Source: a virus
UHGV virus genome: UHGV-0393368
Direction: 5' to 3' (one strand)
DNA: 41,915 nt
This document shows, one piece after another, positions 2,101-38,097 of this stretch (within the stretch, counting starts at the first letter, position 1; each line of letters begins with the position of its first letter). Below the pieces are notes generated by a model that did no database searches, was not told where the DNA came from, and saw only the letters and a program-made list of their open reading frames with translations. The position numbers and the translations under genes were made by a program.

Positions 2101-3237
2101 TCAAGGCATCATCTCCAGGAAACCCTTTATGGTCATCTGGCCACCGTTCTTCGCCTCTGCCTGTTTCATCTTCTTAAAATCGTTATATCTCTGTCTGTAC
2201 CTATAGCTGTCACCAAATATATTCCATGCAGCCTTAACAACATTCGGTTCGTATGCTCTTATCTTTTCCAAATCCGCTACCGCTTTAGAGGAAATACTAC
2301 ACCCACAACATCCTGTACGTGTCAACCCATACACCTCGTAAGCGTCCGAATATCTTATCTCATACCGCTCTTTATACCATGCCTTATCTGCGTCCGACAC
2401 ATAATACAATGGCTTTAATCGGAACTGTCCGCTGCTCGTTTCTGAAAAACACATCGTTCCATTTGCATCTTCAGATTTTGGCACGGAGCGCATGCCTCCC
2501 TCGTCCCGGCGTTCTCCTGTAATAACCATTTCATATCCCGCTTGTACCTTATGGGCTATCTGTTTCTTGCAGTAGTCACAGCATTTTGCGCTGATTTTAA
2601 AATCGCACGGATTTTCTTTCATAAACTCGTATAGGTATTTCGATGAATCAATCACTAACTGTATATTTGGCCTTGGTTCCCCATCTCGGTTACAACAACA
2701 CAGAAAATTGATTCCCTGTTCTGATTTCGGATACCGCTCTCGCAATTCCTCTCTCTTTGCCATTTTATTCTCCGCATTGTCATATTCTTCCCTGATAGAA
2801 AGTGGAAGCTCTTTCTTCTGCACCGTTTCCATTGCGCTTGATACAATTTTTGAAATGAATGGGATACCATATTCCCTCGTAGACTGTACAATGTTTTTCT
2901 TAGGTCTGTACTCCGTTATCTCAACACCATATTTATTTTTAACATCTATTACATGGTCTTTTGTCGCCTTCATTTCAAGCCCAGTATTGAAAAAACAGTA
3001 TTTCACCTCAGGTAGGCCGAACAACGTTCTTGTCCGTTCTATCAAATCGAGCATAATATCACTGTCACTTCCACCGGAATACGAACATATTGCATTTGGA
3101 TGCTCTTTTAATCTCCTTGCAATAATCGACTGTATTGCCTGAAATTTACTCGGCGCATCAAAATCAGCGTACGCCGGGCGTTCAGTGTATACTCTTGAAT
3201 AATATACTTCCTTACTATTTTTATTTGTCTGTCTCAT
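2101..3237 (-). CDS. PAPS reductase family PP-loop ATP pyrophosphatase-like protein, large phage type with several Cys clusters.
   Basis: 378 aa. It carries a canonical SGGSDS PP-loop (CSYSGGSDSDIMLDLIE) and multiple Cys clusters (CCCNRDGEP, KCCDYCKK, GCCGCS). Confidence 0.7.
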   Translation of the reverse strand: MRQTNKNSKEVYYSRVYTERPAYADFDAPSKFQAIQSIIARRLKEHPNAICSYSGGSDSDIMLDLIERTRTLFGLPEVKYCFFNTGLEMKATKDHVIDVKNKYGVEITEYRPKKNIVQSTREYGIPFISKIVSSAMETVQKKELPLSIREEYDNAENKMAKREELRERYPKSEQGINFLCCCNRDGEPRPNIQLVIDSSKYLYEFMKENPCDFKISAKCCDYCKKQIAHKVQAGYEMVITGERRDEGGMRSVPKSEDANGTMCFSETSSGQFRLKPLYYVSDADKAWYKERYEIRYSDAYEVYGLTRTGCCGCSISSKAVADLEKIRAYEPNVVKAAWNIFGDSYRYRQRYNDFKKMKQAEAKNGGQMTIKGFLEMMP

Positions 3238-4307: not shown

Positions 4308-4982
4308 TCACCTCTTTGGGTCATTCCATGGTAGTTCACTATCCTGCATATCATTCGGTGGCTGCATAACTAACTCTTTCTTTGGATTCTCTTTCAGTTT
4401 TTTAATTGTTTCATTTGCCTGGGAATTAGTCATATCATGGATATCAGTCAGTCCATACTTTGATAGCACATTCTTAATCCCTATTCCGGTACGTTTAAGC
4501 TCCAGGAATATTTCATTGATATCGGATTCATTAATCAAATCAGGATTATTCTGCTTATTGTATTTAGTTCGGTCTGAATCCCAATAAACATCCGCGCCAA
4601 TCCCAAGCTGCTTACACGCTACCGATATAGCATCTGTGGTTGCCATCTTGTAACATTCGTCCGAAACGTATATGCCGGATTTCTCTTTTGATGCAAACAT
4701 GCTGCCGCCGTTTCCTGGGATTGGTTTAGACCATTCCCCATCAACCTTTATGTATAATTCGATATCTACAAAAGCTGCTATCTCATTACCCGATGTTTCC
4801 AACCACTTCTTCGTTGGGATGTAGTACCATCCTATCCCACATGGCCCGAACTGTTCAGTAAGGACTTTTATGCGCCACATAGGGTTAATATCGGTCATAC
4901 CGCTGGTACGACCTCCCTTAATGGTTTTCTTAGCGCTATCTGGAACAGAACGGACCTTTTGGTATAAGTCAAGATTTTCCAT
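4308..4982 (-). CDS. Rad52/Sak-like single-strand annealing protein.
   Basis: The N-terminal core reads KGGRTSGMTDINPMWRIKVLTEQFGPCGIGWYY, consistent with Rad52/22-type phage annealases. It is followed by Gp157 and an HNH gene, the usual arrangement. The start was chosen at MENLDLY, which has an AGGTG SD. Confidence 0.5.
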   Translation of the reverse strand: MENLDLYQKVRSVPDSAKKTIKGGRTSGMTDINPMWRIKVLTEQFGPCGIGWYYIPTKKWLETSGNEIAAFVDIELYIKVDGEWSKPIPGNGGSMFASKEKSGIYVSDECYKMATTDAISVACKQLGIGADVYWDSDRTKYNKQNNPDLINESDINEIFLELKRTGIGIKNVLSKYGLTDIHDMTNSQANETIKKLKENPKKELVMQPPNDMQDSELPWNDPKR

Positions 4983-12880: not shown

Positions 12881-13294
12881 TTACACCTCCAGCTGACTTA
12901 AAATTATTGCATCCACTGTATCTTGCAATGTCCGCACTGTATCCCGGATATCTGGCCTACGAAGTTTAACAACCATAATGGTATCCTTCACTTCATTGGT
13001 TTCATAATTCGGCTCTTCCTCGGTTCCGGTATTTACTGTTTCAGATGAAATGACATAATCCATTTTCTTGCGCATCTCAACCAGCTGAGTAAATCCGGTT
13101 TTTACTTCCATCGGCTGACCGTCCAAACCAAGTATGTAAATTTTTTCTGTATTTGTCGGATTAAATTCGGATTCTACCGTTTCAAAACTGTCTAGGCCGG
13201 GAAGAAACGACAGGGTTAGGTAATCGCCTGATTCTTCCACCCCGTTTGTTATTAAGTCGTATTTTGTGTTGTTTGATAGTTTTAATTGGTTCAT
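12881..13294 (-). CDS. Hypothetical tail-fibre-associated protein, XkdW-like by position.
   Basis: 137 aa with an AAAGGAG SD. It lies between the tail-fibre genes and xkdX. Confidence 0.35.
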   Translation of the reverse strand: MNQLKLSNNTKYDLITNGVEESGDYLTLSFLPGLDSFETVESEFNPTNTEKIYILGLDGQPMEVKTGFTQLVEMRKKMDYVISSETVNTGTEEEPNYETNEVKDTIMVVKLRRPDIRDTVRTLQDTVDAIILSQLEV

Positions 13295-13327
13295 TTTACT
13301 CCTTTCATGGGTATGTTTTTATATTAC

Positions 13328-13340
13328 AAATAGCAATTTG
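13328..13340. repeat. Left copy of a perfect 13-bp inverted repeat, AAATAGCAATTTG.
   Basis: Its exact reverse complement occurs at 13850-13862. Both copies are read as Asn-Ser-Asn-Leu codons in the local coding frames. Confidence 0.7.
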
Positions 13341-13571
13341 ACTGATGTTTCCAATACAGCTGCTACGGCAAATAACAAAGTCATCCTGAATGGTGTTAAG
13401 AACATTAATGGGTTTACAACTGTCTATTCTGACCGCACTGATCGGGCAATCCAGTTGCAATACGCATCCGGAGAGATTGCATCAATAGCCTTTAATAATA
13501 CGGGAATTTGGTATGACTTTTACAATGGAACCACTTGGAACCAGGTTTGGAAACTTAATAAGCCGACATAA
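13341..13571 (+). other. Promoterless alternative tail-fibre C-terminal coding segment of 77 codons ending in TAA, in inverted orientation. Invertible cassette half.
   Basis: Open plus-strand frame TDVSNTAATANNKVILNGVKNINGFTTVYSDRTDRAIQLQYASGEIASIAFNNTGIWYDFYNGTTWNQVWKLNKPT. It has no own start or SD. It begins exactly after the left IR in the same codon phase. Its composition and junction peptide resemble the C-terminus of gene 13580..14128. It ends 8 nt from that gene's stop, tail-to-tail. Confidence 0.55.
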
Positions 13572-13579
13572 TGATCATT

Positions 13580-14128
13580 TTACCATCCCTCCGAAACAAC
13601 TTTAGATTGATTGGTTGCCCAGTTGTCAGTTGTCCGGTACATGGTAAGTTGCCCCGTATTCTCAATTTGGAGGCGATACCGTATACTCTCTCCAATGTTT
13701 AGTGTCATGGCTGCCCACTGGTTATTATTGGACAATTCCACATACCATCCTTCTGTTCCTTTGGTTCTTACCGTGGATCCAGCAAGGGGGCCATCATAAC
13801 CGCTGGAAAAATTTTCCTCAAGCGAGGATACGCGATTATTTGTACTTCCCAAATTGCTATTTAAGTCATTAATCGCAAGCTGCATTGTATTAGCTAAAGC
13901 CAATGATGGAACCTTATCTGTAGCATCAGATAATACGTTAGATATAGCAGATAACGCTAACTTCTCCCGGTCCAGTTGCTTTAATGCATCAATTGCTTTA
14001 TTGGCTGCATCGGTTACCCGTTTTATTGCCTGTTCTGTTTTGTTTAAGTTTGTCTCATCCAAATCTGGCTCAGAGTCATTAACATACACAGTAGGTATAT
14101 ATTCTTGGATATTTTCTATGTTATTCAT
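13580..14128 (-). CDS. Tail fibre protein with a conserved N-terminal collar motif and a variable C-terminal segment, currently in the expressed orientation.
   Basis: N-terminus VYVNDSEPDLDETNLNKTEQAIKRV shows the tail-fibre N-terminal motif shared with genes at 15480 and 15944. An AAGGAGG SD is present. The right IR (13850-13862) lies at codons N90-L93. Confidence 0.6.
   Translation of the reverse strand: MNNIENIQEYIPTVYVNDSEPDLDETNLNKTEQAIKRVTDAANKAIDALKQLDREKLALSAISNVLSDATDKVPSLALANTMQLAINDLNSNLGSTNNRVSSLEENFSSGYDGPLAGSTVRTKGTEGWYVELSNNNQWAAMTLNIGESIRYRLQIENTGQLTMYRTTDNWATNQSKVVSEGW
13850..13862. repeat. Right copy of the 13-bp inverted repeat, CAAATTGCTATTT on the forward strand.
   Basis: Reverse complement of 13328-13340. 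It lies inside the tail-fibre gene at the constant/variable junction. Confidence 0.7.
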
Positions 14129-34906: not shown

Positions 34907-35322
34907 GCATCATCATTCCCTTTCTCCGGTTTTGGTATATCGTTCAGTATAGTGACTCCTTGTGCATTTTCTCCCTTTTTTGTATTATCCATAAACTTAT
35001 CAACTACTATCCCCATCGCTGTTGCAATTTGGGAGATAGTAGCATTTTCTAACTTATGCGGGTCCGCCAGCTTTTCAAGATATTTATCAATAATACCCTG
35101 TGCTTGTTCTTTTCTGGAATCCATATATGCCAACATATCGGCTGTATTCTGTTCTTTTTTTTGTGCGCACTTCTGCGCAATATCTGCACTTTTTGCGCAT
35201 ATGTTTTTTACTGTGTTATCTGAAACACCGAATTTTTTTGCTGTGGCACGATAGCTTCCAGATTCCACATAATCAGCTATTATTTTCTTTTTCTGTTTAT
35301 CTGTTAATCTGGAAGCCACGAT
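34903..35322 (-). CDS. terS: Terminase small subunit.
   Basis: The HTH reads YRATAKKFGVSDNTVKNI. It overlaps terL by 4 nt. The start is uncertain (GTG with an AAGAGGTGA SD). Confidence 0.65.
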   Translation of the reverse strand: MVASRLTDKQKKKIIADYVESGSYRATAKKFGVSDNTVKNICAKSADIAQKCAQKKEQNTADMLAYMDSRKEQAQGIIDKYLEKLADPHKLENATISQIATAMGIVVDKFMDNTKKGENAQGVTILNDIPKPEKGNDDA

Positions 35323-35409: not shown

Positions 35410-35715
35410 TTATGCATATCCATTCATCGTTCCTACTTGCATCCACTTTTTATCAGAATAATTTCCGTATCGATAAATATATCCACTTGTCGGATACTCA
35501 ACTATTGTTAAAATTAGTGATTCTCCATATTTTTTTCTAACCTGCTCATAAATATCTTGAAGATTTAGTATTTCATCTCTTTCATTCTCTCTCCATTCTG
35601 GTATAAATAAAACATCTTCTGGCATTCCATTTTGATATGGAGATACAATAATTCTTAAACTTGCTCCTCCCATCCTATAGAATTTTATTTCATCTGGATT
35701 TTCTATTGATTTCAT
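35410..35715 (-). CDS. Hypothetical protein.
   Basis: 101 aa and AT-rich. Confidence 0.3.
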   Translation of the reverse strand: MKSIENPDEIKFYRMGGASLRIIVSPYQNGMPEDVLFIPEWRENERDEILNLQDIYEQVRKKYGESLILTIVEYPTSGYIYRYGNYSDKKWMQVGTMNGYA

Positions 35716-36164: not shown

Positions 36165-37211
36165 CTACACATTAACTCTTTCTCTTACTGAACGAAGAGT
36201 GCGCGGGTTAGACTGTGCATAATAACGTGCCGTAACTCCTGGGTCTGCATGGCCCATAATTTCCTGTATGGTCCCAATATCAACTCCTCTGTTTTTCAGA
36301 TTCATTCCCAGCGTCTTGCGTGACTTATGCGGATATACCCGACATGTTAGACCGGCTCTTTTCCTTATGGTTTTCAATATCGCCCGAAATCCACAAGTAG
36401 TCATCTTTCCATACGGTTTTCTGGAGCGTGGGAACATATATGGACAATCATCTTTCCTGCTGTCAAAATACAGGCCGTAGTAATGACGCGCATCATCATC
36501 CAGATAGATAGTCCGATATCTTCCGCCTTTCTCTCCCTGTATCCAAATATCGCCGGTTCTCATGTCTATCTGGTCCAGAGTTATTTCTGCAATCTCCCCT
36601 ATCCTGGCTCCAGTACTTCGAAGTACCTCCAGCAAGGCCCTCTCGCGGATATTTTTGCACGCATCCCTTAATCTTGCAGATTCTTCCGGGCTGTAATAAT
36701 CAATTGGTTTAATTGGTACTTTCTTGGCAGGTATTGGTTCCACCGGATTATCTGTAATAAGCTTTTCAAGGCGCATCCATGTAAAGAATGCTGATAGAAA
36801 ACGGCGTTCATTGTTGTAGGTACTGGGCTGATTTTTCTTTCCTCCGCTGGACACATTCCTAATTTCGTATCGGGATAAATACCAATCAATATCTGTGGTA
36901 TCCATCTGGTCCAATGATTTTGTGTTTATTTCTGTCAACAATCTTCGTATGGCATTCAGATAGTTTTGTTTGGTTCCTCTTGCTAAATCGCGTTTTTTAA
37001 TCAGGAATAATTGTATTATGTACTGATTCCGCTGGCTTATATCATCCTTTCTTTCTGCCGGAAGAGTAGTTATTTCCTCCATATTTACCCTTACCAATTC
37101 CTGCTGCATTACATTTTGCAGAATGTTAAGAGTCTGCTGCTCCACAATATATAAGGACATGGCTACCAGTACATTGTTAATTATTTCAGCTTTAATTGTC
37201 TGTGTACTCAT
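36165..37211 (-). CDS. Second tyrosine recombinase (XerD/Rci/Cre-like phage integrase family), separate from the canonical integrase.
   Basis: Catalytic residues lie in RSTGARIGE (Arg), YPHKSRKTLGMNL (His-x-x-Arg) and IMGHADPGVTARYYA (His ... Tyr). The start was set at the internal ATG (MSTQTIKAE...) that has a GAGGAGGA SD. The ORF-track start at 37313 lacks an SD. Confidence 0.8.
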   Translation of the reverse strand: MSTQTIKAEIINNVLVAMSLYIVEQQTLNILQNVMQQELVRVNMEEITTLPAERKDDISQRNQYIIQLFLIKKRDLARGTKQNYLNAIRRLLTEINTKSLDQMDTTDIDWYLSRYEIRNVSSGGKKNQPSTYNNERRFLSAFFTWMRLEKLITDNPVEPIPAKKVPIKPIDYYSPEESARLRDACKNIRERALLEVLRSTGARIGEIAEITLDQIDMRTGDIWIQGEKGGRYRTIYLDDDARHYYGLYFDSRKDDCPYMFPRSRKPYGKMTTCGFRAILKTIRKRAGLTCRVYPHKSRKTLGMNLKNRGVDIGTIQEIMGHADPGVTARYYAQSNPRTLRSVRERVNV

Positions 37212-37242
37212 AATTATATCCTCCTCATTCGTATTGATTTTC

Positions 37243-37274
37243 ACGTCTGAGTGAGATATAATATACTCAGACGT
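37243..37274. promoter_or_regulatory. Perfect 10-bp inverted repeat ACGTCTGAGT..ACTCAGACGT flanking a 12-nt spacer that contains TATAAT, 32-64 nt upstream of the recombinase start.
   Basis: ACGTCTGAGT-gagatataatat-ACTCAGACGT. It could be an operator over a -10 element or a recombinase binding site. Confidence 0.35.
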
Positions 37275-37369
37275 ATTTACGAGAGCGGTGGAATCATCTT
37301 GGCGGGTGACCATCGCTCAGTTTTCATTCTGTGCATATATGTGTTCCTTTATCTATTTTTCTTTAATCT

Positions 37370-37655: not shown

Positions 37656-37946
37656 TTAATTCTCCAACTCCTCAGCCCAGGCAGTATGGTTGTATGTATA
37701 AACTACATTACCCGTAACAATGGCCTCAAGCCCCTCCCATTCTTCTACATTTTCAAGAGACAGTTCTTCGCTATTCAATGCACAAGCGATAGCTTCTTTC
37801 TCGTTTTCCGCCTCGACTTCCACATAACATGCTGCAACTATCGGTACCATAACTCGATATTTTTTCATCTTTATTCCTTCCTTCGTTACTCCCGGAAATA
37901 TCAGTTTTGTTGTGTAACGATACACATTGTTACGCAACGTTATCAT
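37656..37946 (-). CDS. Hypothetical small protein, probably starting at the internal MKKYRV.
   Basis: 96 aa ORF. Confidence 0.3.
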   Translation of the reverse strand: MITLRNNVYRYTTKLIFPGVTKEGIKMKKYRVMVPIVAACYVEVEAENEKEAIACALNSEELSLENVEEWEGLEAIVTGNVVYTYNHTAWAEELEN

Positions 37947-38097
37947 TAAGATACCTGTCCAGGGCCTGCCGGATCACCCAACTTATAGCCCTGTCCTCTT
38001 TCTGGCAGTAGGCGGTTACCCGTTTTAGTTGTTCCGGGTCCATGCTTATGTTCTGCCGGATATACTTCTTATTGGTCTCTTTCTTTGGTCTTGCCAT
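37930..38097 (-). CDS. Ribbon-helix-helix (CopG/Arc-like) DNA-binding protein.
   Basis: MARPKKETNKKYIRQNISMDPEQLKRVTAYCQKEDRAISWVIRQALDRYL matches the RHH pattern. The start is at the internal ATG. Confidence 0.55.
   Translation of the reverse strand: MARPKKETNKKYIRQNISMDPEQLKRVTAYCQKEDRAISWVIRQALDRYLNDNVA

Follow-up and report, generated by a model that had tools for sequence, protein, structure and literature searches.

Host-range switching through the inversion of a tail-fibre gene is textbook knowledge for phages Mu and P1. In the Mu, P1, e14, and p15B systems, an adjacent serine invertase is found together with 26-bp gix or cix sites with a 2-bp crossover, a Fis-dependent enhancer, and fibre-assembly genes within the segment. 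The sites of the R64 recombinase Rci are conserved on one side only, so that only inversion results. A tyrosine-recombinase system, the Rin shufflon, is known from Bifidobacterium and Eggerthella prophages, in which a predicted XerD-like enzyme acts at an 11-bp rix core (Mavrich et al. 2018, PMC6109161; PMC8778435). In a second bifidophage inversion (689b-1 / Bb423phi2), ~500 bp are inverted at an 8-bp repeat, and the 3' end of a structural gene is swapped with a small convergent gene (PMC6109161). Here, we analyzed the tail-fibre locus of UHGV-0393368, a stretch of 41,915 nucleotides (the window) that represents a complete, circularly permuted temperate phage genome (~41.9 kb). We conclude that the C-terminal, receptor-binding head of this fibre is likely switched between two states by site-specific DNA inversion. 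Prophage tail fibres form one class in a systematic survey of gene-altering inversions, which has nothing matching the present system (PMC9881135), and full-text literature searches returned no description of it.

The Rin shufflon appears to be the closest known system. As in Rin, inversion at a short asymmetric core (12 bp here, 11 bp in rix) would provide a constant N-terminal segment of a receptor-binding or fibre protein with one or another C-terminal segment, and the phages are temperate phages of Gram-positive gut bacteria. In both cases there is a XerD-like tyrosine recombinase with a core-binding and a catalytic domain, separate from the integrase; the two enzymes are likened by layout and description, and the role of the one in the window is suggested by co-occurrence. 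Unlike in Rin, where the recombinase adjoins three to five Rv cassettes with several rix sites, some of them direct, there are two cassettes and two sites here and the recombinase lies ~22 kb away. The cores are unrelated (TTCCCTAACCC in Rin and AAATAGCAATTT here), the hosts here are Lachnospiraceae (Bacillota), and one core is common to unrelated phage backbones that appear to exchange whole cassette pairs. The inversion in 689b-1 / Bb423phi2 is similarly simple, covering ~500 bp at a very short repeat with no recombinase flanking the locus. However, its repeat (CAGGGTTA) and genes are unrelated to those described here, and it is known from a single genome pair with no candidate enzyme, whereas the present system comprises 55 loci, five reciprocal pairs, and a candidate recombinase.

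The serine-invertase systems Mu G/Gin, P1 C/Cin, e14 P/Pin, and p15B Min also combine a constant N-terminal fibre part with alternative C-termini on an invertible segment for host-range switching, but in the window no resolvase-domain recombinase is encoded in or beside the segment, and there is no 26-bp site with two 12-bp half-sites. Nor does the segment carry fibre-assembly genes. The R64/IncI shufflon (Rci) is similar in its tyrosine recombinase, its short sites, and the swapping of C-terminal segments of a specificity protein. It differs in acting on a plasmid pilV adhesin with multiple segments, 19-bp sfx sites, and an adjacent rci gene, as opposed to a phage fibre with an unrelated 12-bp core and a remote recombinase. 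An earlier note on this DNA had likened the locus to the Mu G and P1 C segments. The likeness holds for function, which follows the same logic, and not for mechanism: a serine invertase and a gix-like site are both missing, and Rin is the nearer relative.

The fibre gene, its two cassettes, and the 12-bp core

The fibre open reading frame (ORF), 13580..14128 on the minus strand, encodes 182 amino acids and is the final tail gene. The sequence AAATAGCAATTTG at positions 13328 to 13340 (plus strand) is matched by its exact reverse complement, CAAATTGCTATTT, at positions 13850 to 13862. The match covers 13 bp, mismatches begin at once in the flanks, and 509 nucleotides lie between the arms. The inner core comprises the last base of Leu89, the codons of Asn90-Ser91-Asn92, and the first two bases of Leu93, while the outer copy reads AAT AGC AAT TTG in the same phase and opens a start-less frame that converges on the fibre gene tail to tail, the two stop codons being 8 nucleotides apart. 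The earlier note had described this geometry correctly, apart from the alternative C-terminus, which has 76 residues plus a stop codon and not 77 residues; the predicted postflip fusion of the N-terminal 93 amino acids with cassette B is 169 amino acids long. The site conserved among relatives is 12 bp long (AAATAGCAATTT): the bases directly before and after it vary, and base 13 travels with the cassette. As noted earlier for the repeat, the site is nearly palindromic, the 12-mer departing from a palindrome at one base pair. The coordinates of the locus and of associated features are collected in Table 1.

Table 1. Features of the window that belong to, or were weighed in connection with, the proposed switch
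Feature	Position	Strand	Remarks
Proposed invertible segment, 509 bp	13341..13849		Two convergent cassettes; homologous segments occur in both orientations between collinear flanks
Active cassette A	13580..13849	-	Fibre residues 94-182 and stop codon
Silent cassette B	13341..13571	+	76 codons and TAA (13569-13571), without a start codon of its own
Constant N-terminal fibre part	13863..14128	-	Residues 1-89, predicted helical stalk
Inner core copy (proposed crossover site)	13851..13862	-	Minus strand reads AAATAGCAATTT; invariant across relatives
Outer core copy, AAATAGCAATTT	13328..13339	+	Outer edge of silent cassette; same codon phase
137-amino-acid gene (phrog_12931)	12881..13294	-	Conserved, directly downstream of segment; marks fixed outer flank
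XerD-like tyrosine recombinase, clade R1 (candidate invertase)	36165..37313	-	~22 kb from segment, upstream of packaging genes
Small ORF, phrog_9348	37656..37946	-	Unknown function; upstream of recombinase, co-conserved with it
Canonical phage integrase	10634..11722	+	Weighed as invertase and judged unlikely

In the proposed mechanism, the constant stalk (residues 1 to 93) is followed by cassette A, with the start-less cassette B tail to tail on the other strand, and each cassette begins at the core with its Asn-Ser-Asn-Leu codons, the two copies being mutually inverted. Strand exchange inside the core would flip the 509-bp segment, after which B would be joined to the stalk in frame, giving the 169-amino-acid fibre, and A would turn silent. 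The XerD-like recombinase of the phage itself, whose gene heads the packaging and late region 22 kb from the segment, would act at a distance. The shared core may also let co-infecting unrelated phages swap whole cassette pairs, and the switch would alter host or receptor specificity. Before inversion, the silent cassette is probably merely transcribed antisense within the late operon and expressed only once flipped. The description of the silent frame as promoterless agrees with our scan, in which no promoter or terminator signal above chance and no Rfam match were found across the region. A mechanical ORF call stretches the silent frame to a GTG at 13266 (13266-13571, plus strand); the added stretch is a hydrophobic read-through and extends over the start of the 137-amino-acid gene on the opposite strand. 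Since the sequence upstream of the silent frame differs among relatives, this GTG is probably not a genuine start.

The full architecture, in which one core lies within the gene and its reverse complement marks the outer end of an intact convergent ORF without a start codon, was identified at 55 related loci (designated here by L and a number), each with exactly two core copies and two cassettes. It was present at each complete locus bearing this N-terminus, and the silent cassette was always an intact ORF. Stop-to-stop gaps were 0 to 8 nucleotides in the first survey; for the later extension of the locus set, the detector accepted spacings of -12 to +40 nucleotides. At integrase-anchored loci, the outer core was found at the same place, and the cassette beyond it was again intact and in phase, some of these cassettes being of new types. 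A fibre family with an unrelated CBM5/12-type N-terminus shares this core and geometry, and in a third N-terminal family NSNL directly precedes B-like C-termini (seen at the protein level only). With a generic detector requiring an inverted repeat of at least 10 bp, equal codon phase in both arms, and convergent ORFs arranged stop to stop, we obtained 52 hits among 80 capsid-anchored loci versus 1 in the reversed-sequence control. The deposited phage genomes of INPHARED contained no relatives by blastn with the region or by tblastn with two fibre families.

The inner core was invariant over 23 distinct left-flank contexts representing at least three unrelated N-terminal families, with the codon choice fixed, and the outer core was invariant over 30 distinct right-flank contexts, including the integrase-anchored loci, which had not been picked via the fibre. 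Altogether, the core was unchanged at both positions in ~50 different flank contexts. The Asn-Ser-Asn codons were constant even where the N-terminal domains share no DNA similarity, which points to a constraint acting on the DNA rather than on the protein. Two irregularities were seen at the cores. A one-base length variation (TTT versus TTTT) abuts the outer edge of the outer core (L001:5394-5410, L016, L018, L020, and L031); it is present in both segment orientations and is thus not linked to the flip. In L099 (~4690-4706), the core is partly duplicated (AAATAGCAAAATAGCAATTT).

The 56 distinct cassette sequences fall into 33 families, 17 of which occur both active and silent. The ratio of nonsynonymous to synonymous substitution rates (dN/dS) was 0.14 for the silent B of the window against the expressed B of L001 (dS, 0.9), 0.12 for silent C against silent C, 0.09 to 0.10 for silent against active D, and 0.26 to 0.43 in the E comparisons. 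On these estimates (~0.1 to 0.4), the silent cassettes appear to be kept as coding sequence under purifying selection. By its value, the B cassette of the window is not a decayed duplicate, which the earlier note had named among the findings that would speak against inversion.

When the hypothetical fusion of the first 93 residues with B was used as a query, natural homologs of the same length (169 amino acids) were recovered with 90% and 82% identity over 100% of the query, in agreement with the in-frame fusion predicted earlier. The same search returned hundreds of proteins of 151 to 290 amino acids whose first 93 residues were 99% to 100% identical and whose C-termini were unrelated. B-type cassettes are expressed in P0001, P0002, P0134, and P0135. 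In the contigs encoding the 169-amino-acid proteins (L001 to L003), a B-type cassette is active and a third type, C, lies downstream as a convergent start-less ORF, which ends at the reverse complement of the core; beyond this lies the outer flank known from the window.

The 182-amino-acid protein has no family of its own in Pfam, PHROGs, or NCBIfam, and a profile search of PDB sequences gave no match. Homologs sharing its N-terminus have H-type lectin, XkdV_N, or collagen matches, and others are named "pyocin knob domain-containing protein" or "Baseplate component." It is therefore reasonable to regard the protein as a putative tail fibre or receptor-binding protein. In the AlphaFold2 model of the B-type fusion, the mean predicted local distance difference test score was 59, and only the last ~45 residues reached 77 to 87. 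In this low-confidence model, the NSNL junction falls within the second of two long helices (residues 76 to 106) and the C-terminus forms a small beta domain, which would fit a coiled-coil stalk with an exchangeable head.

Segment orientation and proposed cassette exchange among relatives

Both orientations, between collinear flanks and with the breakpoints at or inside the 12-mer, were observed for five cassette pairs; this is the pattern by which programmed gene-altering inversions are recognized in general. In the D/E pair (L018 versus L031), the inner 464 nucleotides are 95.9% identical as the reverse complement and 33% identical directly, and the flanks are collinear (98.2% and 98.5%). 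The B'/C pair (L001 and L002 versus L123, from different samples) is identical as the reverse complement at 539 of 539 positions, with 249 of 250 matching in the left flank. Two further pairs have a variant core: L155 and L161 (612/612 as the reverse complement) and L151 and L169 (84%), both with left flanks identical at 400 of 400 positions. The fam3/fam16 pair (L140 versus L148) matches at 99.6% as the reverse complement on diverged backbones. The exact B'/C flip places the strand exchange within the 12-mer, since the next base, G with B' and A with C, changes position together with its cassette.

Some assembled contigs end close to the cores. The independent contigs of L021, L022, L023, and L136 stop 42 to 43 nucleotides past the in-gene core, and L155 stops 3 nucleotides past the outer core. 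A de Bruijn assembler (k, ~55) would fork where one cassette start has two preceding sequences in one sample and would produce such ends. They are suggestive only, but could reflect the presence of two orientations in one sample.

The A/B segment of the window is also found, identical at 533 of 533 positions from repeat to repeat, in L131 (L131:1646-2187), and it is carried by L132 and L133 as well. Over 14.5 kb, this 542-bp block is the sole DNA homology between the L131 phage and the window, and the homology ends within 7 bp of the cores on the left and 1 bp on the right. In the L131 phage, the N-terminus of the fibre (CBM5/12-like), the lysin, and the integrase all differ from those of the window. 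Moreover, cassette pairings are reshuffled among phages (e.g., F/G, G/J, J/K, and K'/F). The cassette pair seems to behave as a horizontally exchanged module bounded by the 12-mers, and since the breakpoints lie at the 12-bp site, we infer site-specific rather than homologous exchange. A wider reading, to which we would give slightly less than an even chance, is that unrelated Lachnospiraceae phages share a standardised 12-bp docking site and a cognate XerD-like recombinase that, besides flipping the switch, exchanges whole cassette pairs between co-resident phage genomes. This would be a natural counterpart of recombinase-mediated cassette exchange, with a common pool of at least 33 head families open to every phage that has the site. 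The strongest single support for exchange is the 533/533 identity in a phage with no other DNA homology.

A candidate recombinase and alternative explanations

The second tyrosine recombinase of the window, which the earlier note had mentioned as a possible driver, proved to be the best candidate by co-occurrence, and it is probably the invertase. The protein has a PF00589 domain (3.7e-30), a SAM-like core-binding domain (PF13495), and an N-terminal extension of ~100 amino acids; its best NCBIfam matches are XerA/XerD-like, with weak matches to tyrosine-type DNA invertase models. The ORF is intact and 95% to 97% identical to the recombinases of relatives. L141 and L137, when merged, give 28.4 kb of a second-family phage with packaging, head, tail, fibre, lysis, and integrase genes. 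This phage has the same 12-mer core and no structural homology with the window, and only 4 of the 51 window proteins match it: the recombinase (71.5% over 354 amino acids), the ORF upstream of it (90.6%), the integrase (26%), and the lysin (31%). The upstream ORF, phrog_9348, is 91% identical in amino acids and 95.7% in DNA between the window and the otherwise unrelated L141, while the recombinase DNA is 67.7% identical.

R1-type recombinases are present on L133, L134, L136, and L137, i.e., on all near-complete second-family contigs with the system, together with at least two integrase types (the match in L133 spans residues 53 to 356 only). Clade R3, which is ~27% identical and occupies the same genomic position, accompanies the variant core AAATAGTGATTT, and R3 loci also show reciprocal orientations. 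The recombinase lies ~15 kb upstream of the core in L141 and adjoins the segment at none of the 55 loci. Within the phage group of the window itself, both tyrosine recombinases are always present, and co-occurrence there does not discriminate between them.

The earlier statement that no serine invertase is encoded agrees with our searches: a Pfam scan of ~40 window ORFs gave no PF00239, and phmmer with a Hin sequence gave no match among ORFs of at least 50 amino acids in the window and nine loci or of at least 80 amino acids in 80 more loci. As only 12 bp are conserved and both sides vary freely, the site is too small for a gix- or hix-type site. Its size is in line with the short cores at which tyrosine invertases act, among them rix (11 bp), the fim repeats (9 bp), and sfx. 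The integrase is an unlikely invertase: phages with the identical 12-mer carry unrelated integrases, no core-like sequence was found in the interval between the integrase and lysin genes, the presumed attP location, and in the integrated prophages L031 and L128 the integrase is at the far end.

Two observations concern the surroundings of the recombinase gene. A short ORF just upstream of the phrog_9348 ORF (37930-38095, minus strand) has a ribbon-helix-helix look, judged by eye only. A 14-bp perfect inverted repeat, TTCAAGATATTTAT (35074-35087 and 35548-35561), spans the 5' part of the small terminase gene and the neighbouring ORF ~600 bp from the recombinase; having the same inner orientation in 23 of 23 relatives, it was treated as a chance repeat and not as a second inversion.

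Several points weigh against an active, phage-encoded switch. The window contains four exact 13-mer inverted pairs within 1 kb, compared with a mean of 0.81 in first-order Markov simulations, and at least one comparable pair occurred in 44% of the simulated windows; by itself, the repeat is not significant, and its weight comes from the reading-frame geometry and the conservation in relatives. The evidence on orientation consists of assembled contigs, whose ends are only suggestive for a mixture within a sample. Receptor binding by the cassettes is read from the gene position, the lectin, knob, and XkdV annotations of homologs, and a low-confidence model. As to the recombinase, clade R2, only 26% identical to R1, accompanies the same GCAA core; L146 and L164 have the architecture and no recombinase within 10 kb upstream, one of the two being mosaic in that region; L213, L214, and L190 to L193 carry a recombinase, and the architecture was not detected there; and the data on co-occurrence of recombinase and core are phylogenetically nonindependent.

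The remaining points concern the cassette pair of the window. The earlier note had suggested that flipped segments be sought in related genomes, and these exist for the five pairs above, but not for A/B in any database searched. None of the ~100 contigs listed for the A-form cluster has it flipped, the exact flipped chimera did not occur among the 15 billion proteins of one collection, and neither the JGI metagenome nor the IMG/VR collection contained the flipped junction. A control search with the core and the start of B returned only two contigs, both A-active and both of another backbone, and the pair is likewise A-active in the second backbone (L131 to L133). The constant A state could have several reasons: inversion may be infrequent, e.g., if the recombinase is produced only at a late lytic stage; the sampled hosts may select strongly for A; assemblies may report the majority orientation only; or the switch may be locally inactive.

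The last of these would leave the pair of the window frozen, as a relic of a past inversion or cassette import with no appreciable flipping now. Such a state would account for the lack of B-active contigs and of the flipped junction in three collections, and also for a silent cassette that is identical in all copies examined. However, both cores are perfect, the recombinase ORF is intact and closely similar to those of relatives, silent B is intact with its low dN/dS against expressed homologs, and exact flips of recent date are seen in sister lineages that have this core and recombinase. In addition, a minority state would be missed in assemblies that show the majority orientation only. We consider a frozen pair unlikely.

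The main alternative to the phage enzyme, about equally improbable, is that the switch is real and driven in trans by a tyrosine invertase of the Enterocloster or other Lachnospiraceae host, the XerD-like enzyme of the phage serving in multimer resolution or late-gene control. The same 12-mer in unrelated phages, the shared core of recombinase clades that are 26% identical, and the two loci with the architecture and no recombinase in reach all speak for a host enzyme. There are also precedents, as Mpi of Bacteroides is an established trans-acting global invertase and an enzyme acting in trans has been proposed for the recombinase-less bifidophage inversion (PMC6109161). On the other hand, the recombinase and its neighbour ORF are the sole well-conserved proteins between structurally unrelated phages that share the core, an R1 recombinase is found on all near-complete second-family contigs with the system, and a different recombinase clade accompanies a different core. 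These observations favour a phage-encoded invertase.

Rare homologous or illegitimate recombination at a chance repeat, or the action of the integrase at a secondary site, with no dedicated switch, is highly improbable. In its favour, a repeat of this kind could by itself arise by chance, a recombination module (Sipho_Gp157 and an exonuclease) is encoded by the phage, and the integrase gene is 1.6 kb away in the circular form. Against it, 12 bp is far shorter than RecA or single-strand annealing proteins use efficiently, and the core is invariant with fixed codons in ~50 contexts. Every silent cassette is intact and in phase, with purifying selection acting on these cassettes, and in the five independent reciprocal pairs the breakpoints coincide exactly with the core. 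Moreover, phages that share the core have different integrases, and the integrase-lysin interval has no core-like sequence. A diversity-generating retroelement was dismissed, as the cassettes are unrelated and not adenine-mutated copies and no reverse transcriptase was seen.

Genomic surroundings and implications

The phage of the window has been assembled repeatedly: the exact fibre protein is indexed in 67 collection blocks and on 41 contigs, which reach 43.7 kb (e.g., vOTU_03549, 41,911 bp). Its hosts are Enterocloster species; one locus, the D/E-type prophage L031, lies inside E. hominis CLA-SR-H021, and E. aldenensis and E. citroniae are the named sources of related proteins. The structural operon is on the minus strand and runs from the small and large terminase genes (~35.3 to 33.7 kb) down to the tail genes, of which the fibre gene is followed by the 137-amino-acid gene, a 41-amino-acid ORF, and an M15 endolysin gene; the integrase is encoded on the opposite strand. 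The counterpart of the 137-amino-acid protein (phrog_12931) in L131 is 27% identical. In the early region, a gene at 2101-3237 (minus strand) encodes a 378-amino-acid protein with a PAPS-reductase domain (PF01507; E = 4.5e-13), and it adjoins an HNHc_6 nuclease gene and the Sipho_Gp157/exonuclease recombination module.

Additional repeats and fibre variants were encountered in the tail regions of relatives. The generic detector flagged a conserved in-phase inverted repeat with convergent ORFs, CTGCTTATAA, ~2 kb upstream of the fibre gene (L144 and L146 to L150; e.g., L144:17664-18523) and another, GGAAATCAAT, at the end of an ORF of ~1,270 codons (L201 to L211; e.g., L201:18454-18930); these could be further inversion switches or inherited chance repeats. 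In L025 to L030 (fibre from 6001), a fibre N-terminus ~56% identical to that of the window is followed by at least four unrelated C-termini after the fixed junction ...LLTKLNGEM, and several of these contigs stop at or just past it. No inverted repeat or silent cassette was found within their short downstream stretches. L027 carries a XerD-like recombinase gene 170 nucleotides downstream of the fibre gene and convergent with it, which was dropped as evidence because no cassette lies between the two genes.

The tyrosine-recombinase version of fibre inversion has so far been reported only for a few Actinobacteria prophages, and the present locus would extend it to phages of abundant human gut Lachnospiraceae (Enterocloster). 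The design is minimal, with two cassettes and a 12-bp core, and the recombinase need not adjoin its substrate. Silent cassettes of this kind are routinely left unannotated and passed over as "intergenic" DNA, and assembly-based host predictions and "strain" calls for such gut phages can be wrong or unstable, several contigs ending at the site. In practice, the recombinase together with its 12-bp site may offer a compact means of inverting DNA or exchanging cassettes in Clostridia, and the cassette pool already amounts to a library of receptor-binding heads for one shared stalk, from which phages of altered specificity could be engineered. For the phages themselves, one core sequence would tie otherwise unrelated members into a network that shares cassettes.

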